DNA of 60,568 nt, filler included, from Globobulimina sp. (Eukaryota), in the NCBI GenBank assembly GCA_003354225.1. It is 17 parts of 17 records of this genome, joined end to end, with 100 filler letters (N's around TTAATTAATTAA, not from the genome) between each part and the next. Parts side by side here need not be neighbours in the genome. Positions count along the whole stretch, not along the records: positions 57,104 to 60,568 come from PIVH01002729.1; 16 more parts are not named here. One strand, given 5' to 3'. This document shows, in pieces, positions 1 to 60,568 of this stretch. The translations under genes and the position numbers were made by a program. Within the stretch, counting starts at the first letter, position 1; the number at the start of each line of letters is the position of its first letter. The notes beneath the pieces are model-generated. The model searched no databases. It had not been told where the DNA came from and was given only the letters and a program-made list of their open reading frames with translations.

Positions 1-1054
1 TCCAATGTCTTTATTTGTGATATAATCAGCCATTCCATCACAACCAAACAAACATCCACGATCTGTCTCTGCGACAATAGTCATTGCACATCCCTTACAA
101 TCGCCTTTTTCTTCCTGTACTTCAATATCAATATCAATCTTTATTTTATTCTCCTTAATTTTCAATCTATTTTCAAATTCTTGCATCGCGCCATTAACCA
201 TTTCATATCCGCTATTTTTGTCCATTTTATCTCCCGCAATCACCACAATTCCATATATTTTAATTAATTTCCCTCTATCACTCAAATCAAAACAAGGTAG
301 CACCCCATCAATGGGACGTGTATGTAACTCAATTTCTCCATTTCCTTTCGGAAAAAAGCCTCTCCGTTTTATGTCAACTCCCATTTGTATACCAAACAAC
401 TGCACAGAAGTCATGCAACAAAATTAAATATGGCAAAATCTCAAAGCATAAACGCATGCAAACCTTATTTAGCATTGGAATTAACACTAATTTTACATAA
501 TCGATAGATGGGGAAAAGAATACGTTTGTGCCACCTTTGAGAGTTACTGTTGATTTATTTTGTGAAAACAGTAAACATGGCAATATAGTTTGCATTAATA
601 GTGATATGGGAGCTGCTGTTCGCATATCACATACCATATCAATTTTGTTTTTATTTCTTAAGTTTGGATAAAATTCAACTTTTGTAGATTTCACATGATT
701 GCCAATTAATTGTCCACCAAATATTCTTTGTATCGTAGCTATACCAAATTTATGTTGCGATCGCAAGCCTGAAATTTTTCTGTGCCGTCTGATGTTTTGT
801 ATGGTGATGGCTTTATGTAATAATCCAGATAAACATATGCAATGTCTTACAATTTGACCGCCGCCTTCCATGATGGATCCATCAATGTATGTTATATTCT
901 CATCATTGTTTTTGGTTTCTTCTTGTTCGTCATTATCATTGTTTTTTTGTTGCATTTTGTTGCGTTTGTTTCTATTCTCATGACGCTTCTTTTTGAGTCT
1001 GCGATAACGCCGTTTCTTAGACCTGCTACTGTGGGTATTTTGATAGTTTGGCAT
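1..1054 (-). CDS. RTCA: RNA 3'-terminal phosphate cyclase (RtcA family), one intron, 3'-truncated at window edge
   Basis: IDGSIMEGGGQIVR, GLRSQH and LKGGTNVFFSPSIDY motifs. GT-AG intron 463..400 joins to LFGIQMGVDIKRRGFFPKGNGEIEL. Basic NLS-like N-terminus. Confidence 0.9.
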
Positions 1055-10960: not shown

Positions 10961-13148
10961 ATGACAGGCTCAAATAAAGGTGACTATGATCTAAACTCAA
11001 GTCTTCCAGTCCATGCCATTGAAGACTACGATCACACGTCAACACGCTCCAACCAATCGCCATATGACCACCTAACAGAACCTCATATTGCAGGAGCAAC
11101 CACAGAGAGTGCACCTATCCCTCACCCGAATGTGCCACACCAAGACACGAATTATCATTCATTTGCTGACACCAAAAACGAGGATCATCATATGACAGAT
11201 GATGATAACAAATCAATGTTATCAAAATTAATCGAACGAAGCAAATTAATCTCCGAAGTATTAGCAGCCACATATGGCAAACCAACGACTTATGTTCGCT
11301 ATGCAGCTAAAGAGCAAAAGGAAGGCATCGACGATGAGTTAGCGTCGGTTATTATGCAACAGGAATTTGACACTGGCCACAGGGTCAAATTTGGTACATG
11401 GGACGGTGTCTGCGCCCGATGCTTGTTGAACATCTTTGGTGTGATCATGTATTTACGCGTCGGATTTATTGTGGCTGAGGCTGGCATCATTGAAAGTTTA
11501 TATATTATTGTTGTCGCCTCGGCGGTTACTTTAATCACAACCTTGTCGATGAGCGCACTGTGCACAAATGGAGTGGTGCTCGGCGGCGGAGCTTATTATT
11601 TCATTTCAAGGGTTATGGGGCCGTCGGTGGGCGGCTCCGTTGGCTTAATCTTCAGTGTTGGGAACATGTTCGCGGTGTCTCTATATATCATTGGCTTTGC
11701 CGAAACTTTGGGTACTTTCTAATGACAAATAATTTGTGCAGCACACGTTGGAACCAATGAATATTGTTTGTGAGCTTTAATTGATTGGTTACAGTCAAAC
11801 AATGATTTGTTTTTCATTGACGGATTGCATGCACAAATTATTGTTTCTTTGTAGATACAAATTCTATGCAAAATATATGCTTTGTCAGGCCAACATATCG
11901 AAGACGAGACCGGTTGGACCATATTTGACAAACAGAACGATATTCGAATATGGTCAAATGTTTTGTTGGTCGCTACTTTTGTTTTAGCGGTGATTGGGAT
12001 GAGTATTGTGATAAAAACGCAATTATTTTTATTACTATTAATAATGGTGTCGTTGGTGTTTTTTTTCATTGGATCTGTGTATAAAACTGAACCAGGAGTA
12101 ATATTTGGAATTGATGGGTGGACCAATGGCAATTTCAAAACCAACTTGGAATCGGATTATGACGGTCAGTATGACTTTTGGAGGGTATTTAAATATTTTT
12201 TCTTCATTCAATCTCTAAATATTTTTCGTTGTGTTACGTGTGTTATAATTACATTGAAAGGTTTTTGCAATATTCTTCCCAGCGGTGACGGGGATAATGG
12301 CTGGAGCCAACATTTCAGGCGATTTGAAGGACCCCGCAAAGGATATTCCAAAAGGAACATTGTGGTCCATTGGTATCTCGACCGTGATATATATATTGTT
12401 GTCAGTGGTTGTTGGTGCTGTGGTTGTACGTGAAATTGAGGGGAATGATGAGGATGGATTGAAACATGATAATTTGATAATGGCTAAAATATGTTCGTGG
12501 AATTACTTGGTTTTATTAGGGATTTATGCGGCGACATTATCGTCGGCCATTGAAGCATTAGTCGGAGCACCGCGGATATTGCAAGCCATTGCTTATGATT
12601 TGGCAAAAGAGTGTTTCCCTTTTTTGGGCTACTTCGCCAAGGAAAATAAGGCCGGGGACCCCATTCGAGGCTATGTGTTGACCTGTTTTGTGACATTTTT
12701 GTGTAACTTGACAGGTGAACTAAACGCCGTCGCTGAGATGATATCGCAATTTTTTATGTTTACTTATGCCATTATGAATTTTTGTATATTCTGGATAGAG
12801 ATTGGAAAGAAGCCAAGCAAAAAAGCATGGGATCCAACATTCACGTTTTATAATAAATGGTTATCATTAATAGGTGGACTTGCTTCGTTTGCTTCGATGT
12901 TTGTAATGAATTATAAATATGCGGGACCTGCTATTTTTGTTACATTCCTGTTATATCTGTGGATTGAATATAAAGATCCTTCCACGACATATAGGCCGAT
13001 TAAAAGATTTTATTTGTTTCAATGTATTGCGGATTGCTTTGTTTGTATTTGCTGTCCATTGAAATGTTGTAAAATAAGAATGAAGAAATTAACACGAAGA
13101 AAAACAATGAATATAAAATATGATTTGGAAATGCGTGATAATGAATGA
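10961..13148 (+). CDS. Cation-chloride cotransporter (SLC12/NKCC-KCC family), two introns
   Basis: FGTWDGV..RCLLNIFGVIMYLR, TNG..GGGAYYFISR..GGSVG, FFPAVTGIMAGANISGDLKDP and LVGAPRILQAIA. Introns 11712..11888 and 12185..12260 give one frame. Confidence 0.93.
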
Positions 13149-15587: not shown

Positions 15588-16626
15588 TTATTTATGTGTA
15601 TGTTTGTATTTATTTCTTGGTCTTCCTTCATTATAATAAACTTTTAAATACTTAGATATTTCACATAAACAATTCTCCATTGCCATTAAATTCAAACATT
15701 TTTCTTTCCTGTCCTCAAATAAAATTTCCACATTACATTGATTATCTGTAAAACCTTTTTTTTGTATTTTACAAAGATATTGGATGCATTGATTATAATT
15801 TAAATGTTTTTTATCTTTAAAAAGTCTGTTAATCCCATTAATAGCACCTGGTCCAGCAATGACATATTTACATTCATTAAATATATCTTTATTCCAATAG
15901 CCTAAATCTACGGAGATTTGATATGCCATAAAAGGACCAATTCCTCGCAATTTTAATAATGATTTATAAGTAAAATCTGAACTTTTATTGTTTAAAATAT
16001 CTTTACAAAACTTTGGAATCATTTTTAATGTTTTTTTGAATAAAATGCATGTTCTTCCAATCTTATCACGTTTAATTTTCTTATTCTTATCAATAAAACC
16101 ATAGCTTGGTACAATAAATGCATTCGTAAAAACTTTTTCATTTTTTTTTACTAAATCTCGCAAATTTGTTTCTAATTTTTTTGTATCAAATGCCTGAATT
16201 GTTTGAAAGCCAATTTTATTGAATGTATTTATTTTATTATAAATCCTATAAATAAATATATTAAAAAATAAATTTTCGAAATCGTTTTCAAATTTGGGAA
16301 TAATTTTATTTATAACATATTGTGTTCCTGGATCAATATCTCTGAATACATTGGTAAATCTCCATTGTGACAATATTTTGTCATTCGTCCATGGTGCTAA
16401 CTCATTTTTGCTTCTTTTCTTATAAATGTTATGTCGCTCAATAATATACTGCCAAAATAAATTAATATTTTCTTCATGAAGAATTATTTTTGTGTTATCC
16501 TCAGATAATTTTTGTTTTTTTCTTGCTGGCTCCGGTATATCAGCCTTGTGGATGGATACAGTGAAAAAGAGGTTTAATGAGCAACATGGTACATACATTC
16601 TCTGGCATTTGTTTTCTTCTTGGCAT
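15588..16626 (-). CDS. Homologue of phage DNA thymine-hypermodification enzymes (aGPT-PPlase / 5-hmdU-kinase-associated helical family), one intron
   Basis: ERHNIY..PWTNDKILSQWRFTNVFRDID, YRIYNK, FTNAF, HhH-like LRGIGPFMAYQI..DL, GPGA..G and ENCLCEISKY. Intron 16596..16545 joins MPRRKQMPEN to ADIPEPARKKQK. Confidence 0.8.
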
Positions 16627-16710
16627 CGATGTCTTGCGTCACGACGGAATGTTTAAAAAAAAAACCTAGTTTAATAAAATAATAAGTCATAATAAATAAT
16701 GCAAGACAAG

Positions 16711-17758
16711 TCATTTTTTTGTTTTTTTTTGCCAAACTAAACCTTTCATGTTTTGATCCGTGGAATCATCAATTTCGATATCATGATCATTTCCTTTGGT
16801 ATCACCTGTTACCAATGATTGTAATTCCTTTGTTATGGTTTGCTTTGCATAGTGATATGATCCACAAACTGACTGTTGAATATGCCATTGTTTATATCCC
16901 AATGCTTGTAGATTCCAACAATTATTATTTTTGAATATTCTACACATTACAACTGATCTTGATTTGCCTGCTTCGTCAATTTCATATCGAATTAAATTAA
17001 TATCAGCCGCGGTTTCTTCATATAATAAAATAGTCGGTTCCTTAAATTCTGACAAATCACTTGGTCCGCAAGCACATAATGTAAAAAATAATTGTTTAAT
17101 ATTTTTGTCTTCCATTAATTTGGATAAATTTAACCTAATTTTATGTACTGATTTACCATTAACTTTAGTATCACCACTATGTGATATGTTGTTGTACCGT
17201 CTGGCACCATAATGTACCACTTGTATGCAGTTATCATCATTATCATAAATCAAACACGCACCGCATAAAATATGTGACGAATCAGAGTCTAATTGCAAAA
17301 TAAAATTATTTATAATGTTTGGTTTGCACAATTTATCTTTTTTAAACATTAAATCTGTTGTTGGCACACCTAAAATGTCTGCAATTTCATGGTTTAATTG
17401 TTTACGTTTTGAATGAAGGATATTTGCTTCATTTTCATCCGTAAACACAATCTGATACTCAATTAATTGAGTCTCTTGATCTGTAAACGTAACATTTGAT
17501 ATTTCAACTTTATTATTTGCACCGTATACTTTTTGTACACATTGTATAAATTGATAAACATCAAATTTTGTGCTCATTTCGCATTTTATAATCATTTTAT
17601 ATTTAGGAATTGCAATTATTTGTTTTGATGTTAGCTTAATACCGGTTTTACCATTGGCATTATTATTATTTGTGTTACTATCAAGGAGCGGCTGATACAT
17701 TTTCAATACAGAATCTCTTGAACAGCCACGTAGATAATCATAGATTATTTGTGCTATG
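16711..17758 (-). CDS. TerD-domain protein, 5'-truncated
   Basis: ACLIYD..VHYG..ISHSGD..HKIRLNLSKL..LFFTL..SVVMCRIFK..WNLQALG matches the TerD pattern. Frame is open to the contig edge. Confidence 0.7.
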
Positions 17759-34486: not shown

Positions 34487-35604
34487 ATGCCGAGAAATAA
34501 GCCAGTTCCGTTAAAAAGAGGTACAAAGGAATGGTACATTAGGTATCCTTTCGCGGCAAAAGCAAAATATAATCGATTAAAACGAAAAATTGATAATAAA
34601 AATAAAAAAAAGCGGTATAGTAAAACGACTGTGCAGTCGGTAAAACAGTCTATAATTAATCCGTTAACATGTAAATCGAATAAAATTAAGATTATAATAT
34701 GGAATGTTGATGGGGGAATGAATGCGAATTCAATTAAAAACGCCGATGTTATTACGTATATTGAAGATAAGCAGCCCCATATTTGTATGTTTCAAGAAAC
34801 AGTCGGATTTAAGAATTATAGGGGTTATAAAATTGCGAATGATGGTGAATTTGCACAAATTAATGGAATGAAGCGCATTGCGAATGATATTATTGGTGTA
34901 ACGTCGATTTATGTGTGCGATAATATGGTAAATAGCACCAGTTCTATAGATATCCCATATGATTTAATTGATGCAGTGCCAAAAAATAATATTCATTCAT
35001 GTGCGGTTGTAGTTAAATTAAAAAAAAAGTACAGAAACAGGGATAAAATCGTATTATGGAATGGTTATAGGTCACCAAATAACGATGCAATCAACTTGGT
35101 AAACATCAAAATAATCCATAGATTTATTGCGAATTATATGAATGATGCAACACCGACAATTATTAATAGTGGTGACTATAATATCCGTTCTGAATTCTTA
35201 GGGTCGATTGATAGAAATGATGAGAAACGCTATAATTTATTAAAAAAATATGATGACGGAGATAATTTATTTAATGTAATGAGCAATATCGGCCTGAAAA
35301 ACATGAACGTATATGGACAGAAAACGAGATTTATGAAGAACAAATACGACGTTGTGGAAGAATCAATTATTGATACAATTTGGCCAAATATCAACAAAAA
35401 ACGTCGTACAAAATTAATTAATACTTATATCCCCGAAACTATATCTGATCACTATCCAAATCACTTATATCTAATTAATGTAAATGCTATTAAACAAAAG
35501 AAACGTTTTACGAAAACAGTGTGGGATTTGGAAAAAATGTCGGCCCAAAACATAGAAAAATACCAAAATGATTTAGATATTAAGTTCAAATCAATGAAAA
35601 TGGT
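34487..35604 (+). mobile_element. LINE-like ORF2, APE/EEP endonuclease domain, truncated before RT
   Basis: IIIWNVDG, PHICMFQET, NGYRSP, SGDYN, SIIDTIW and ISDHYP in canonical order, followed by WDL..., as in non-LTR ORF2. Confidence 0.8.
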
Positions 35605-36008
35605 NNNNNNNNNNNNNNNNNNNNNNNNNNNNNNNNNNNNNNNNNNNNTTAATTAATTAANNNNNNNNNNNNNNNNNNNNNNNNNNNNNNNNNNNNNNNN
35701 NNNNTGTCTTGTTTCCTTTGATTGGATGTATTGTTGTAATGATGCCCTTTCTGGATATACTGGATTATTTAAAGGGTAAATAAAAGATTTTATGTTGTAT
35801 AATGCTTGAAATTGTTCAATTTCATCCATGCAAAAATTAGTATTATGCTAACCAGTTAACGTCACACATTTAATAATACAAACGTCACGCATTTAATCTT
35901 CATACAAAGCAGTTTTCGAAAAAAAAAACAATTTTAATAAAAAACACCAAAAACAATTAAACTCATTTTAATAAAGGTGAATACGCAAAACTAGAAATAA
36001 TATCTGCA

Positions 36009-50205: not shown

Positions 50206-52130
50206 TCATGCAAATTCAATTAACTCCTCATCACTTTCACCACTAGTACTTGAATATACATTTTTTTTATTTTTCTTTCCGCCACAATACATACAACATA
50301 CAAAACACGCAACAGCCACAACAACCATCACCGCAAATATTGCATTCAATACCTGTACCATACTTCCATTCGCTTCAAATTTTAATGTCTCCCTAATTCC
50401 CTCCACCACCGTCAATAACCTTCTGTTTCCAGGTAAATTATGCAATTTAGTACAAGAACCTTTATGGCAAAAACAGCTTTTCTTACAACATTCCTCATCA
50501 TTACTACAGCGAAAACCAGGTTTTATACAACAGCCCATATCGCCATCACCCGTACTGCCTTTGTATTTGCTCGAACATGCAACTCCAAAATGTGCCGGAT
50601 TCACACCACCAACGCAACAATCTTCTGTGTCGTCACATTCTTCACCGATAAAACATTTACCATCATCACTATCGTCACTATCACCATCATCACTATATTT
50701 GCGATGTTTAATTTGTTTGCCAGCTGGATATTCTCCCATAGCATTGCCGCCTGTATCAACCCCATTGCATGATTTATCATTATCTTCCACTGTATATAGT
50801 GTAACCATTCCAGCAGCAATATGGTCAAACACATGGCAATGATACAGCCAAACCCCTGGCATATCAACAGTCATTGTCACAGTATATGTGGTACCAGCTA
50901 TCAACACCAACGTATCGGTGTTATCACCTAATGAATCTACTGCGATACTTCCATGCCTATATATATACAAACAGAGAAGTTTGCAAATTATATGCACACA
51001 TAAACGTTGCTAATGTTGCAATTATACTGTATACGATTTAGCTTTGCAACATGCTTCAAATACAAACAGAAACACCTAACCAGTGAGGACTGTGTGGACC
51101 GTCCACCTCATTTCCAAGAGAACACGTATACCATCTCACACTTTCACATTTCTCCATCGATAAAGTATCTAAATTGCCGAATAAATATCCATTGATTGCG
51201 TGCATTTTATTCGATTCAATGAAACCTTCATCTTCAAGCAAGTCCGCATCATCACCGTCAGATATCATTGCTAAATTATCCTCAAACAACATCGACCGAC
51301 TTTCTTCATATAATACCATAAAAGTTGTAAACTCTCTGTCGACATCCTTTGGCATTAAATTAGTTTTACTGGTTTCCATCCCTTTTTTTGTTACAATAAT
51401 CGCGCCAAATAAGCCGGTATAAATATCCTTGATGGCATTAACGTGGCTGTGATATAGCCACATTTTCGAACTTAAATTCTCATCGACCATATTGTTTCTG
51501 GCATACCAAATATAAATCCATTTCCCTCCATCCTCTGCAACAACATCACCGCCTGTCACTCCGTCATCGTCTAAATATGGAGCGCCTTCACTTAATTTAT
51601 CATACGCTACGCCATGGCCATGTAATGAGGTTGGGAAAGAGCACATATTTTTGTAATATATTTTAATTTTCTCACCAGTTAAGGCTCGGAAGTTCGGTCC
51701 TAATGAACCTAAATGTTCATCTGCTTCGCTCCGTTTCTGGGTTTTGAAACAAGCATTTGTATATTCGCGATATAGCGCTTTCCAATATGTGGCACCAATT
51801 CTGTCTACGCCATTGCCCCATAGCCACGTCGCTTCATGTGAGGTGTTGGTGACATTCTTACCTGCGATCAAATGGTATTCAGATGTACAAATATGGTGTT
51901 TTTACTTATTACGTACAAATATGGAGTGTGTATATTGTTACTCACGGACCTGAATATACATTCTTTGCATATGGCGCGTAATTCCATTGTACTTCAACAC
52001 ATGCTACGTAATATACACGCTCTGCATATACATCGTAGTTAACATTGCTTTTGAACTTGTAATCGCAGTTTGCACTTGCATATAATGCGGTGATTTGATA
52101 CAATGAGAGCAACAGTAAAGTTAACGCCAT
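50206..52130 (-). CDS. Two-domain ceruloplasmin/hephaestin-like multicopper oxidase with Cys-rich region and C-terminal TM, two introns
   Basis: Signal peptide; RVYYVACVEVQWNYAP, LHGHG, WLYHSHV, HSPHW|HG and WLYHCHVFDHIAAGM. Introns 51949..51862 and 51080..50957. Confidence 0.92.
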
Positions 52131-55992: not shown

Positions 55993-56322
55993 AACGCATA
56001 TTTTTATCAATGTAATCCTAAAAACTGCACTCCATACATTACCATTCGTTTGTAACAGTATTGTGTCTAAAGTTTTTCTCATTTTTCTTTGGTTTGGAGT
56101 CATATGGCTCTTTTCGTAAAAACTTTACCTCTGAATTGAACTCTGTTTATGTTTCAAATAAATGCTGTTCTAAAGTATATGAAGATTACTGGTGGTTTCG
56201 AAACACCGTGCTTTTGCTCGGATAGAAGTTCTAACTGATGCAATATTAATGATGGCCTACAACAAACGTTCTGATGGCTATTATTTTCAATTTCATTTAA
56301 AAAACTTGGCTCACTGTGTAAA

Positions 56323-57003
56323 ATGTGCAAACTAGACGATCATATAGTTGATATATCATCATTTGTGGTAATTTTCGTTATTTGTGTGATGGGAATGATT
56401 GCAACTGGCTGGTGTTTGAGCTATTATTTGTTACGTTCATTACCTCAAATAAGCGCACGGAAACCAATAGCATCGATTTTATGTGGCACATCATGCATAT
56501 TATCAAACTATATGACATATCCACTCACCATCCTGCAGGGCAACGTAAGCATAATGCCGACAATATCGCACATTTCAGTGATTACAACCATACTGTCATG
56601 GTTTACGACTCTTGTCATATATCACTTATTTACATACCGTACATATATGGTTTATTACGACATTAAATTGACAAACAATGGCGATTACATGGTTAATAAT
56701 TGAAACTATTTCAATGTTATTAAATAATGGCAAACCAACCACAATGGGCAGAATAGCAATTTTGTTATGTAGTTTTATACCGATCACGATTGATATTATT
56801 GTTTATTTAAAATTCCCCAAATTTAATGATGTCTGGTATTTGGCAAAGGAATCTCTATGAATTTTAAGATTTGAATTGGTTGCCTTTCTTTTCCCCATTA
56901 AACAACATAGCATTCCATATCTAATATTGCCTTTTATCTCTGCTCTCTACGCATTGCTGTATGTTTATATCATAAATGGTTATGTCTTGAAAGTATTTAA
57001 GTT
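56323..57003 (+). pseudogene. Multi-pass membrane protein, broken into frames (pseudogene or assembly error)
   Basis: Consecutive hydrophobic ORFs 56323-56703 and 56678-56860, and further hydrophobic sequence beyond, without clear intron signals. Confidence 0.4.
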
Positions 57004-57103
57004 NNNNNNNNNNNNNNNNNNNNNNNNNNNNNNNNNNNNNNNNNNNNTTAATTAATTAANNNNNNNNNNNNNNNNNNNNNNNNNNNNNNNNNNNNNNNNN
57101 NNN

Positions 57104-57597
57104 ATGGTGCAGTTAATTTGATAGAAACAATCAGAAAAGATGTTGAACACAATAATGATAAGAATGTAACTAAAAAAAGGAAAGACAGTTTGTTGATATT
57201 GCTGAAAGATTTGAATCAGAAAGAAATGAATAGTTTAGATTCAGAATGGTGTGATGTGTCAAATGAAAGTAATGCAAACGCAATCATATCATTTATCGCG
57301 GTGGAATATAATAAGAAGGCCATAGATGAAATACCGAGTTGTATTGAAGCTTTGATTGGGCGATTTTATTTGGTAAAATGTGATTTTGTTGTCCCATATT
57401 TGAAAATGCAGTTAGATTTTGATGGGATGGTTATTGTGAATAAAAAGAAGATCTGTGCTTTCTGTCAAAATATCCAAATTAATATGCAAAGATGCAGTGG
57501 GTGTAAATATGTATTTTACTGCAACCGATTGTGTCAACAAAAAGACTGGAAACCAACTCATAAAACCATATGTGCTACAATCAAAAAAGTGATTTAA
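57104..57597 (+). CDS. MYND zinc-finger protein, 5'-truncated
   Basis: CAFC...RCSGCKYVFYCNRLCQQKDWKPTHKTIC. Confidence 0.9.
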
Positions 57598-57992
57598 ATG
57601 TTAGAACTCTTCAAAGTGATTTTATTCTTAGATTTAATATTTTATTTAGCTACGCTATTATAATATAGGTTAAATACCGGCTGTTCTAATTTCGACTATA
57701 CTGTAAATGCTGTTTCTATCTGACGGTATATCGTTGTCCATACCAATTACTTTTGCTTGGTTTGCAAGATACTCAACAAAAACTTCAACTAACAAACTCA
57801 CTCACTCCTCTTTCCAATTAACCAACCTCTTGTTTCCCTGATCAGATCAAAGCGCGGACCGTTGACTTATTAGTAAATTAAATCACAAACAGTTGCGTAT
57901 ATATATAAATAATAAATAATATATATGATTTAATAGGGACAGCATTTGTGTCTATAATATTGAATAACAAATTAAATTAAATATATTTGTAG

Positions 57993-60392
57993 ATGGCCGA
58001 CGTAGCACCAAAAGAAGGCGAATGGATTTTGCGTCCAGCAAAGACGAACTGGATCGCGACATTGTCGAACAAGAATTACTGGGCCTTTTATTTCCTAGTG
58101 ATTGTGGCAATTTGTGTGGGCGGAATTGGTTATTTTGGGGAAGTGGCGCATTATGAGGTGCCGCCATTGTGCGATTTCGTGGGTCCTGATGGCAGCGTGG
58201 TGATATCGGCCAAGAGCATCAATCACGGCGAGGAGGTGTTCCATTTGCGAGGTTTGATGGCTTATGGCTCCTTCTTAGGGGATGGCAGTGAGCGTGGCCC
58301 CGATTATACGGCCGAGGCGTTGCACGAATTAGCAATTGGAATGACCAAACATTACGAATCCAAATTGAAGCACAAGACGCAGCACGATGTGGAAGCCCTG
58401 AAACCCAGAGTCCGCATGGAACTCCGCAACAACGCGTACGATTTGGAGAAGGATGTGATTGTCTTGAATTCGGCGCAAATCTCTGCGTGGAAGAGGATCA
58501 AAACTTATTATCGGCGAATCTTTGCGGGTGCGGACCAAGGAACGTCCACTTTGACGCCAAATATGTTCATAACGAACCCGACGGACATCGCAGATTTGGC
58601 CGGCTTCTTTTTTTGGGGCGCCTGGATGTCTGCGGCGGCGCGACCCGGCGAAGATTACAGTTATACTCATAATTGGCCGCATGAGCCGTTGGCGGGAAAC
58701 ATCCCAACGCCGGCCGTGATTTTGTGGTCGGCCATCTCAGTGTTGATATTATGGTTTGGTTTGGCGGCCACCCTATTTATTTACGGACAGTTGGACCACG
58801 AAAACGAGGACGAAGAGGACATTAAGACGAAAGGACAGCCGTTGACGACCCAGGATTTGGAGACTGGCGTTGTCCGCGAAACGCAGGTGGACTGTTACAA
58901 GTTCTTCGTATTATCGATGCTGGCCTTCGCCATTCAAGTGATAGCCGGGGTTTGCTGCGCCATCGACTTCGTGCGACCGCTCGGCTTCTCGGCCTGTTAC
59001 ATATTGGGTTACAACGTCTTGCGTTCCTATCACGCCACTTTCCAGATCTTCTGGTTCTTTGTGGCTTGGGTTGGAACCACCATTTGGTTTTTGCCGCGTT
59101 TCCAGCGACGAGTGCCCATTGGACAGAAATTTTTGATTAATTTGTTGTTTGGCGGTTGCTGTGTGGTGGCACTTGGCGGCGCCATCGGTATTCCATTGGG
59201 ACAGACCGGGTACATTCAGGGCGAAATGGCGTATTATTTCGGATCGCAAGGCTGGGAATTTATGGAATTGGGCCGCATATTTCAGGATTTATTGTTGTGC
59301 GGCTTTGTGTTATGGATTTTGATCTTATTTCGCGGCGTCTATTCGTACATTACGTGGAACACCATCTGGTCGACTCCGGCCTGGGTGTTTTACGGCAGTT
59401 TGGTGATGGTTTGGTTTTTATTTTTCAGTTTGAAGGTGACGCCGAAAACGAATTTCATAGTGTCGGACTTCTGGCGGTGGATGGTGGTGCATATGTGGGT
59501 CGAGGTAACTTTTGAAGTGTTCACCACTGTGATTGTGGCCTTCTTGTACCGCGAAATGGGATTAGTGAGCAAAAAGGCAGCGGAGCGAGCCACGTATATC
59601 GCGGTGATGTTGTTCTTTTTGACTGCGACCATCGGTGTGGGGCATAATTTTTATTGGATTGCGAAGCCAACGGGAGTCATTGCGATGGGCAGCGCCTTCT
59701 CGACGACGCAGGTGATGCCTCTTATTTTGCTGACGATGGACGCCTGGAAATTCATCCAAATGCGCGAGAAAGCCGAGTTGGAGCAAGCGAAAGGAAATCA
59801 GAAGCATATTATGCGCGGAGTGTGGTTATTTATGTTGGGCGTCAACTTCTGGAATGTGTTTGGTGCCGGAATCTTGGGCTCGTTTATCAATTTACCCGTT
59901 GTCAATTATTACATGCACTCGACATATTTGACTGGCAATCATGCTCATGCCGCCATGTGGGGCGTAAAAGGAAACATTGCCATTGCCGGCGTCTTATTTT
60001 GTGTGCAACATACGGTGCAAGAGAAGTATTGGTCGCCTAAGATCGTGTCGGTGGCGTTCTGGTCGTTGAATGGTGGTATTGCGGCGCAGATGTTTTTGTC
60101 GATGTTCCCCGCGGGTTTGGTGCATATGTACACCGCCATGGCAGAGGGACTATGGGCAGCGCGTACGCACGATATGTATAATTCGACCATCTTCCAGAAT
60201 TTAGCGAAAGGTCGAGCCTTCGGAGGACATATCTTTTTATGGGGTGGCTTATTGCCGTTGGTTTATTTCGTGGTTTCCAGATATTTCTATCTCAAACCAG
60301 TCACGCCGAATATTGATAAGAATCGCAAATATGACTCATTTTGGTTGGATGCTGCGCATACTGCACCTTATTCCACTAAAAAACTCGTGTAA
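57993..60392 (+). CDS. nod: qNor-family heme-iron enzyme with nitric oxide dismutase (Nod) signature residues
   Basis: YGSFLGDG..RGPDYTAEALH, YSYTHNWP.EP..GN, GSQGWEFMELGR, WRWMVVHMWVEVTFEVF, GHNFYW, STTQVMPL, WNVFGAG and HAHAAMWG. 799 aa, complete. Confidence 0.9.
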   Translation: MADVAPKEGEWILRPAKTNWIATLSNKNYWAFYFLVIVAICVGGIGYFGEVAHYEVPPLCDFVGPDGSVVISAKSINHGEEVFHLRGLMAYGSFLGDGSERGPDYTAEALHELAIGMTKHYESKLKHKTQHDVEALKPRVRMELRNNAYDLEKDVIVLNSAQISAWKRIKTYYRRIFAGADQGTSTLTPNMFITNPTDIADLAGFFFWGAWMSAAARPGEDYSYTHNWPHEPLAGNIPTPAVILWSAISVLILWFGLAATLFIYGQLDHENEDEEDIKTKGQPLTTQDLETGVVRETQVDCYKFFVLSMLAFAIQVIAGVCCAIDFVRPLGFSACYILGYNVLRSYHATFQIFWFFVAWVGTTIWFLPRFQRRVPIGQKFLINLLFGGCCVVALGGAIGIPLGQTGYIQGEMAYYFGSQGWEFMELGRIFQDLLLCGFVLWILILFRGVYSYITWNTIWSTPAWVFYGSLVMVWFLFFSLKVTPKTNFIVSDFWRWMVVHMWVEVTFEVFTTVIVAFLYREMGLVSKKAAERATYIAVMLFFLTATIGVGHNFYWIAKPTGVIAMGSAFSTTQVMPLILLTMDAWKFIQMREKAELEQAKGNQKHIMRGVWLFMLGVNFWNVFGAGILGSFINLPVVNYYMHSTYLTGNHAHAAMWGVKGNIAIAGVLFCVQHTVQEKYWSPKIVSVAFWSLNGGIAAQMFLSMFPAGLVHMYTAMAEGLWAARTHDMYNSTIFQNLAKGRAFGGHIFLWGGLLPLVYFVVSRYFYLKPVTPNIDKNRKYDSFWLDAAHTAPYSTKKLV

Positions 60393-60568
60393 ATTCTTAG
60401 TATTATTATTAGTATTAATATTAGAAAACAATGACATTTGAAGAATTATTTCCCGAATATTTGTCTGGCGATCTTTTATTGCTTTTTTGTTTTTTTGCTT
60501 TTTATATTCACTTTGTTACTTTTTTTTTCTTTTTTTTCTTTATTTCCAGATGTTTTGTTTTCCATTTT

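Follow-up and report, generated by a model that had tools for sequence, protein, structure and literature searches.

We analysed a 60,568-nucleotide stretch of DNA from the Globobulimina sp. assembly GCA_003354225.1 (17 parts joined end to end; hereafter the window), near the 3′ end of which lies a gene for a nitric oxide dismutase (Nod)-type protein of the qNor family (quinol-dependent nitric oxide reductases). This gene, hereafter nod, is an intact single-exon open reading frame (ORF) at positions 57993-60392 on the + strand, which starts with ATG and encodes a protein of 799 amino acids (P0001). It is encoded in host nuclear DNA beside eukaryotic genes, as indicated by an adjacent MYND-finger gene, the domain content of the window, leucine codon use and a sequencing contig that bridges AT-rich DNA and the ORF. 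We consider it highly probable that a Nod-type gene is resident in the nuclear DNA of an AT-rich protist. The fuller statement, that a bacterial gene was acquired anciently and that its host-encoded product would now carry out working nitric oxide (NO) turnover in the host's denitrification, has in our judgement about an even chance of being right.

The nod protein belongs to the Nod-like branch of the qNor family and is predicted to be a haem-iron membrane enzyme that converts NO. Pfam matched it to COX1 (PF00115; E 2.1e-46) over residues 303-745 and to NorB_cytochrome_c-like (PF22085; E 2.9e-44) over residues 62-230, and a scan of NCBIfam named no family. Among solved structures the nearest was 3ayf, the G. 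stearothermophilus qNOR (E 2.2e-127, residues 38-773 aligned), followed by the qNORs of Alcaligenes and Neisseria. An AlphaFold model (mean predicted local distance difference test score, pLDDT, 75; predicted template modelling score, pTM, 0.80) had template modelling (TM) scores of 0.79-0.87 to qNOR structures, and a hydropathy scan gave ∼14 membrane segments. The broad traits of qNor (NorZ) and the haem-copper oxidases were all present: a single chain combines a COX1-type 12-helix core with an N-terminal helix and a haem-free cytochrome-c-like domain. No CXXCH (haem-c) motif occurred in the sequence. Six residues that match those of qNOR (H347, H500, E504, H551, H650 and H652) were invariant in 18 of 18 aligned sequences. 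Alignment with 3ayf and the invariant columns show that the metal-ligand His and the Glu of helix VI are kept as His500 and Glu504 (HMWVEV; 59490-59504, + strand), as is the helix-X His pair, His650-Ala-His652 (NHAHAAM; 59940-59948, + strand), which we take to be the ligands of haem b3 and haem b.

At other sites the protein differs from canonical qNOR by the set of substitutions that divides the putative NO dismutases from qNOR in the description of Ettwig et al. 2012 (PMC3413370), where the quinol-site residues are given as His328 and Asp746 in G. stearothermophilus numbering. All of these sites lie on the + strand. The second His of the helix-VII non-haem metal-site pair is replaced by Asn in His551-Asn552 (GHNFYW, for GHHYYY in 3ayf; 59643-59648). 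Gln573 (STTQV; 59709-59711) replaces the glutamate of the SALEV motif and adjoins Thr572, a residue specific to the eukaryote-like clade described below. The quinol site is lost: the segment from Ile324 to Arg328 (CAIDFVR, for AHYYTE in 3ayf; 58962-58976) aligns with the quinol-site His and Glu of qNOR, Ile324 itself (58962-58964) standing at the His, and Gly745 (GRAFGG, VPD in 3ayf having become FGG; 60225-60227) aligns with the quinol-site Asp. As far as its sequence can tell, the protein carries every mark of the putative Nod family (Asn552 for the metal-ligand His, Gln573 for Glu, and the quinol site gone at Ile324, Arg328 and Gly745) and lacks those of canonical qNOR (the quinol-site His and Asp, the helix-VII His-His pair and the SALEV Glu). 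Judged by its sequence, the protein has kept the qNOR fold, the cytochrome-c-like domain devoid of haem, all conserved His residues, and the His and Glu of the metal site; gone are the canonical quinol site, one of the metal-ligand His residues, replaced by Asn, and the proton-path Glu, replaced by Gln.

These differences were consistent across an alignment of 219 proteins, comprising 121 database matches, 82 open frames from prokaryotic or viral loci and 16 relatives from a sample of 301 genomes, 15 of them of low identity (30-32%) and one Nod-like (54%). Left out were three canonical-type hits, namely an over-long frame (G242), a frame at a contig edge (G112) and one with an in-frame TGA (G225), as well as a 283-residue fragment in G207, and three further loci (L081, L082 and L083) were excluded from the counts and the tree. 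All 15 low-identity proteins read His, His-His, Glu and Asp at the four sites and are therefore canonical qNors, whereas the other rows in which these columns are filled, the window protein included, read non-His, His-Asn, Gln and non-Asp in 202 cases out of 202. Forty-seven alignment positions split the Nod-like proteins from canonical qNor consistently, and the window protein has the Nod-like residue at all 47. A further 13 positions split its clade from 192 bacterial Nod-like rows, as at Thr572, which stands in place of Leu directly before Gln573.

A maximum-likelihood tree (IQ-TREE quick search, LG+C20+F+G4, support by the Shimodaira-Hasegawa-like approximate likelihood ratio test, SH-aLRT, only) was built from 65 rows: the window protein, its nine nearest matches, 40 Nod-like proteins and the 15 canonical qNors. 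The window protein fell inside a clade of 10 (SH-aLRT 100) nested within the bacterial Nod-like clade, closest to P0003 (74% identity) and P0002, and a branch of 3.31 substitutions per site lay between the Nod-like clade and the canonical qNors. Where members of the clade of 10 have flanks, the surrounding DNA is non-bacterial; named foraminiferal sequences are not among the members. The tree as a whole was made without named foraminiferal, M. oxyfera or HdN1 sequences, and the place of the type Nods within the Nod-like clade follows the account in 10.1101/2023.11.21.568154. A first-pass annotation of this DNA had described a complete qNor-family ORF with HN and Q at the diagnostic sites and neither the quinol His nor the Asp, and had taken it for Nod-type and not canonical qNor. 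Its motif coordinates proved exact, and the assignment is borne out by the four-site counts, by the 47 positions and by the tree, in which the protein branches outside canonical qNor and inside the Nod-like clade.

The exact nod protein was absent from a collection of 15 billion proteins. Its nearest relative was 74% identical, and short contigs reached 59-74% identity. A scan of prokaryotes with one genome per species gave 505 relatives, the best 80 of which were retained, with a best identity of 55%. The top prokaryotic matches (53-55%) were from Rhodospirillaceae, Magnetovibrio and marine metagenome-assembled genomes (MAGs) from the eastern tropical North Pacific (ETNP). The only sister sequence to the eukaryote-like clade was P0017 (789 amino acids; SH-aLRT 98), which has Ile at the quinol-His position as in that clade but the bacterial Leu before Gln; it may mark the donor lineage, or come from another eukaryote. 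Three metagenome contigs from different records (L100, L101 and L118) have in common a nod-like gene 64-69% identical to that of the window and tandem-repeat-rich downstream DNA, without bacterial genes. With a gene GC of 0.56 against a flank GC of ∼0.44, they represent a second, more GC-rich eukaryote-like carrier, and two other clade relatives from metagenomes (L102 and L123) likewise have gene GC above flank GC. Nod-like genes were also carried by two IMG/VR contigs, L081 (50.7 kb; 48% identical) and L082 (231 kb; 44% identical), the copy on L082 being apparently interrupted, with an open frame that spans only part of the match.

The DNA around nod is AT-rich and eukaryotic in character. 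GC content was 0.49 for nod itself, compared with 0.31 over 3 kb of upstream sequence, 0.22 over the 176 b that follow the gene and ∼0.32 for the whole window. A MYND-finger ORF (57118-57597, + strand; Pfam E 5.7e-12) ends 395 b upstream of nod, and its 5′ side meets the masked positions 57004-57103. Between the two genes lies an AT-rich spacer with a probable 5′ leader (57598-57992, + strand), in which no Shine-Dalgarno-like purine run precedes the ATG. Downstream, the AT/T-rich 3′ flank (60393-60568, + strand) is covered by nod-holding contigs of three public sequencing runs (X1, X2 and X9, see below); the window stops 176 b past the nod stop codon, so that the downstream neighbourhood is outside view. 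A second nod copy was looked for within the window and none was found.

Elsewhere, too, the window looks eukaryotic. It holds 47 ORFs of at least 150 amino acids; of 42 ORFs scanned, 24 had Pfam matches and 18 had none. Among the domains were CAP-Gly, chromo, C2H2, RING, MYND, SAP, lipase maturation factor (LMF1), metacaspase and D-glutamate cyclase, together with an endonuclease of the long interspersed nuclear element (LINE) type and a 5-hydroxymethyl-dU (5-hmdU) DNA kinase. For two genes, coding for an amino-acid permease and an RNA cyclase, only pieces were present. Scans of the window for tRNA and Rfam families found none. The predicted proteins identify the host as a eukaryote without a close annotated relative, because the best relatives of LMF1 were four EukProt proteins, 46-73% identical, and the best matches of the RNA cyclase fragment were animal proteins with 45% identity at most.

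Codon use also ties nod to its host. TTA and TTG make up 83% of its leucine codons, compared with 78% in host ORFs (n=26) and a maximum of 58% (median 12%) in 80 bacterial nod-like genes, and the CTG share is 4% as against a median of 52% in the same 80 genes. To judge from this pattern, nod looks like a gene long resident in its host that has shifted to G/C-ending codons, unlike a bacterial insert. The first-pass annotation had placed it in eukaryote-like, AT-rich DNA some 400 bp from a MYND gene and without operon context, with which the measured 395 b, the domain content and the GC values agree. It had also raised the concern of a chimera with bacterial DNA, against which both the host-like leucine codons and the bridging contig of run X1 argue.

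Parts of positions 56000-60568 were present in 13 public runs from four studies, none of them recorded as RNA. Four of these runs (X1, X2, X9 and X11) were mapped to the N-free interval 57104-60568, and depth was not used to rank expression. X1 covered all 30 bins; both the MYND gene and nod's first 1.3 kb, as far as ∼59190, lay at a depth of ∼7-14, and depth was higher beyond. Most of the X1 pieces listed were identical to the window, and a 1032-b contig spanned 57734-58765, running from AT-rich DNA into the ORF. X1 may be the window's own source sample, and its agreement is a matter of internal consistency, not independent proof of linkage. In X2, from another study, the MYND region was found on a 1749-b contig with one difference; X9 and X11 had no cover before 57800. 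The nod-covering contigs of X2, X9 and X11 start within 57684-57915, and those of X2 and X9 continue past the stop codon. These starts and ends hint weakly at a transcript with an AT-rich leader and trailer. One X11 contig links 57880 and 57993 through two other letters, so that 112 b of the AT-rich leader are missing from it. An intron at this joint was rejected, its ends not being GT..AG, and the contig probably represents a paralogue with a shorter leader.

Across the runs, thousands of variant contigs were found at 90-99% identity, and they point to a multi-copy nod family. Synonymous changes made up 29 of the 36 in-ORF differences listed (there are 87 more beyond these), and five of the other seven cluster in one degenerate X1 copy. 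The excess of synonymous changes among the listed variants speaks for constraint on the nod ORF. Low-depth contigs of X1 over 58655-59646 and 59813-59988 represent degenerate nod copies beside the intact one: they carried deletions of 1 b and 2 b, stretches of 195 and 294 b that had been replaced, and non-synonymous changes grouped in a cluster.

Under the fuller reading, the anciently acquired bacterial nod gene sits in host nuclear DNA, and its product would consume NO downstream of nitrite reduction in denitrification by the host itself. By our analysis, N2O would be the main product in this eukaryotic lineage, with electrons reaching the enzyme by some way other than the classical quinol pocket, a proposition we regard as evenly poised between true and false. 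Formation of N2 and O2 by dismutation ranks second, as a possibility we find rather doubtful, and both reactions could occur.

Published work on foraminifera bears directly on this point. In Globobulimina, Nod-like genes are described beside eukaryotic genes and branching next to the M. oxyfera Nod, and N2O production was measured; the authors conclude that the function is 'not Nod-like' (PMC6783311). Two other foraminifera are reported to express Nod-like genes ∼tenfold above NirK, and there the authors favour Nod; the discussion of the same paper notes that N2O accumulates under an acetylene block and is hence an intermediate in foraminifera (PMC8153729). N2O as an intermediate argues against pure O2-forming dismutation. 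Nor homologues are reported from 10 of 10 Peruvian rotaliids sampled, with an origin placed in the rotaliid ancestor (PMC9231491). A "eukaryotic Globobulimina clade" ∼50% identical to marine alphaproteobacterial Nod is described in 10.1101/2023.11.21.568154, which also states that no Nod has been characterised biochemically, and our literature search for a purified Nod returned none among the matches listed. The suggestion in the first-pass annotation that the protist may finish denitrification without N2O reductase and make its own O2 finds nothing here in its support, and the published N2O data (PMC6783311, PMC8153729) point the other way. Its caveat that Nor/Nod-like genes were already known from foraminifera was correct (PMC6783311, PMC8153729, PMC9231491).

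The window gene very probably belongs to this published foraminiferal Nor/Nod-like clade, a placement made without named foraminiferal sequences in the alignment. Like the window gene, the Nor/Nod-likes of Globobulimina spp., Nonionella stella, Bolivina argentea and Peruvian rotaliids are, as described in PMC6783311, PMC8153729 and PMC9231491, eukaryote-encoded, of bacterial origin and set among eukaryotic neighbours, lack the quinol site, have the Nod-type catalytic substitutions and form a multi-copy family. The foraminiferal clade is given as ∼50% identical to marine alphaproteobacterial Nod (10.1101/2023.11.21.568154), compared with 51-55% for the window protein, and foraminiferal DNA is described as AT-rich (PMC9231491), as is the window. 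Genes are densely packed in the window, whereas the flanks of the clade members L100, L101 and L118 are rich in repeats. Among bacterial proteins, those of Ca. Methylomirabilis oxyfera (DAMO_2434 and DAMO_2437) and strain HdN1, compared here by published description only, share the His to Asn and Glu to Gln changes and the loss of the quinol site, and keep the haem ligands and overall qNOR fold as the window protein does (PMC3413370); they are bacterial and lie in operon-type contexts, whereas the window gene is eukaryotic. The marine 'Alpha-type' Nod of uncultured Alphaproteobacteria (UBA11136; 10.1101/2023.11.21.568154) has the same signature and is among the best prokaryotic matches, but it is bacterial, with CTG-type leucine codons and STLQV in place of STTQV. 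Canonical qNORs (3ayf; A. xylosoxidans 6qq5/8bgw; N. meningitidis 6l3h) have the same fold and domain order at 26-32% identity over ∼760 aligned columns, yet differ from the window protein in the quinol His/Asp, the His-His pair and the SALEV Glu, all of which it has replaced, at the 47 positions and by the long branch between them.

Several observations weigh against a host-encoded enzyme that forms mainly N2O. The N terminus of the nod protein has no clear targeting signal. Linkage of the MYND gene to nod was seen only in X1; X2 had no cover at 57568-57683 and no bridge to nod. The GC content of nod at third codon positions (GC3) is 0.62, as compared with 0.19-0.49 in 26 other ORFs of the window, and could mark foreign origin. 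The clade of the window protein is equated with the published foraminiferal clade only by matching figures (∼50% identity and AT-rich DNA), with no named foraminiferal sequence in the tree. The sequence offers no visible entry for external electrons, the quinol site being gone and CXXCH absent, and this fits dismutation better than reduction. Finally, PMC6783311 and PMC9231491 report that foraminiferal genomes yielded no N2O reductase (NosZ), even though N2 is made by some species, and a dismutase would explain this.

These last two points are shared by the strongest alternative, a true NO dismutase, in which two NO molecules at haem b3 and the His-His-Asn-Glu metal site would yield N2 and O2 without external electrons or protons. 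Such an enzyme would supply internal O2 to mitochondria in anoxia and bypass N2O reductase, as is also the view of PMC8153729, where Nod is argued for, and the full signature of PMC3413370 is present in the window protein. We regard it as a serious but unlikely explanation. The eukaryote-like clade differs from bacterial Nod-likes at the 13 positions, one of them beside Gln573. The His residues that we presume to ligate the electron-transfer haem b are kept in 18 of 18 sequences, for which a pure dismutase would have no obvious need. N2O production by Globobulimina and its authors' verdict (PMC6783311) and N2O as an intermediate under the acetylene block (PMC8153729) stand against it as well, as does the finding that marine nod abundance follows modelled N2O production, in a source that knows of no Nod biochemistry (10.1101/2023.11.21.568154).

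A second alternative, that the protein detoxifies or senses NO outside respiration or is a decaying copy within a multi-copy family, is improbable. The degenerate X1 copies with their deletions and replaced stretches would fit decay, and neither a nitrite reductase nor a nitrate transporter was found in the window, where the multicopper oxidase at 50206-51871 is ceruloplasmin-like. But the window copy is intact, all conserved ligands are retained and most of the listed variants are synonymous. Foraminiferal homologues, moreover, are reported to be expressed ∼tenfold above NirK (PMC8153729).

Very unlikely, too, is an origin of the window from a giant virus, or from viral DNA integrated in a protist, that carries nod as an auxiliary metabolic gene. 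The window is AT-rich and dense in mostly uninterrupted ORFs, no Pfam match was obtained for 18 of 42 scanned ORFs, Nod-like genes do occur on viral contigs (L081 and L082), and nod in viruses is also mentioned in 10.1101/2023.11.21.568154. However, no viral hallmark family occurred among the 42 ORFs scanned, the Mimivirus-type promoter motif AAAATTGA was not enriched (13 found, 17.8 expected), and the viral Nod-likes are just 44-48% identical. The permease, RNA cyclase and multicopper oxidase genes are split, a LINE-type endonuclease is present, LMF1 has graded relatives in EukProt, and neither LMF1 nor the hmdU kinase had a relative in scans of the viral collection. Least likely of all is that nod is bacterial DNA misjoined to a eukaryotic contig as an assembly chimera or contaminant: the abrupt change in GC at either end of the ORF (0.49 inside, 0.31 in the background), the high GC3, the lack of an intron, the position at the very end of the window and a MYND linkage confined to one run, maybe the source sample, would suit it, but leucine codon use is host-like and outside the range of the 80 bacterial genes, none of the 505 prokaryotic relatives exceeds 55% identity, the X1 contig crosses from AT-rich DNA into the ORF with equal depth over MYND and nod, nod contigs of X2, X9 and X11 reach the AT-rich leader and those of X2 and X9 also the trailer, the clade relatives likewise lie in non-bacterial repeat-rich DNA with gene GC above flank GC, and no Shine-Dalgarno-like run precedes the ATG.

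Other features of the window were recorded alongside nod. Two adjacent ORFs at 50206-51871 (- strand) hold Cu-oxidase_3 and Cu-oxidase_2 domains, with ∼58 b interrupting the gene, and rat and human ceruloplasmin align with the N-terminal part in all three of their repeats (E 1.6e-133). A NirK, suspected from the Cu-oxidase domains, was rejected in favour of a ceruloplasmin/hephaestin-like multicopper oxidase, and the window therefore holds no denitrification cluster. A GT-AG intron between the two oxidase ORFs was considered, but the phases did not fit by eye and no splice sites are claimed. At 15588-17706 (- strand), the helical domain of a 5-hydroxymethyl-dU DNA kinase (Pfam E 6.4e-66) directly adjoins an ORF with a TerD domain, a pair that hints at a DNA base-modification system in the protist. 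An ORF at 34487-35656 (+ strand) with a domain of the endonuclease-reverse-transcriptase type (Exo_endo_phos_2) is probably a fragment of a LINE-like retroelement. The amino-acid permease extends over at least two ORFs at 10961-13148 (+ strand) and the partial RNA 3′-phosphate cyclase lies at 374-1054 (- strand); both genes appear to be split by short introns. Every ∼3570 b the window carries a pair of 44-N blocks with 12 bases between the partners, 16 pairs in all (e.g., 57004-57047 and 57060-57103), which are masks and not biology; one pair covers the 5′ side of the MYND gene.

The kind of gene, the eukaryotic lineage and the O2 hypothesis have all been published before. The novelty lies in a single additional member, no more than 74% identical to anything in the collections searched, and in its genomic setting. 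Beyond the published record the window contributes little: a full-length, intact copy of the gene, flanked on both sides by untranslated sequence and accompanied by a eukaryotic neighbour, and codon-level evidence of long host residence. The 47 family-wide and 13 eukaryote-clade-specific substitutions may serve as a guide for expression and mutagenesis work.

In oxygen-poor sediments, denitrifying foraminifera take out a sizeable share of the fixed nitrogen. Their role in climate depends on whether their NO enzyme yields the greenhouse gas N2O or N2 and O2, and the answer would also show whether eukaryotes can make "dark oxygen". That a mitochondrion-bearing protist might carry a working NO dismutase in compact nuclear DNA, and so obtain O2 from nitrite-derived NO, is a further step that, on present sequence evidence, we think a little less likely even than the dismutase chemistry itself. 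If dismutation were the true activity, it would allow aerobic respiration in anoxic sediment and release of N2 without N2O reductase, and the clade-specific changes near the active site, such as Thr572, would be eukaryotic adaptations of dismutation.

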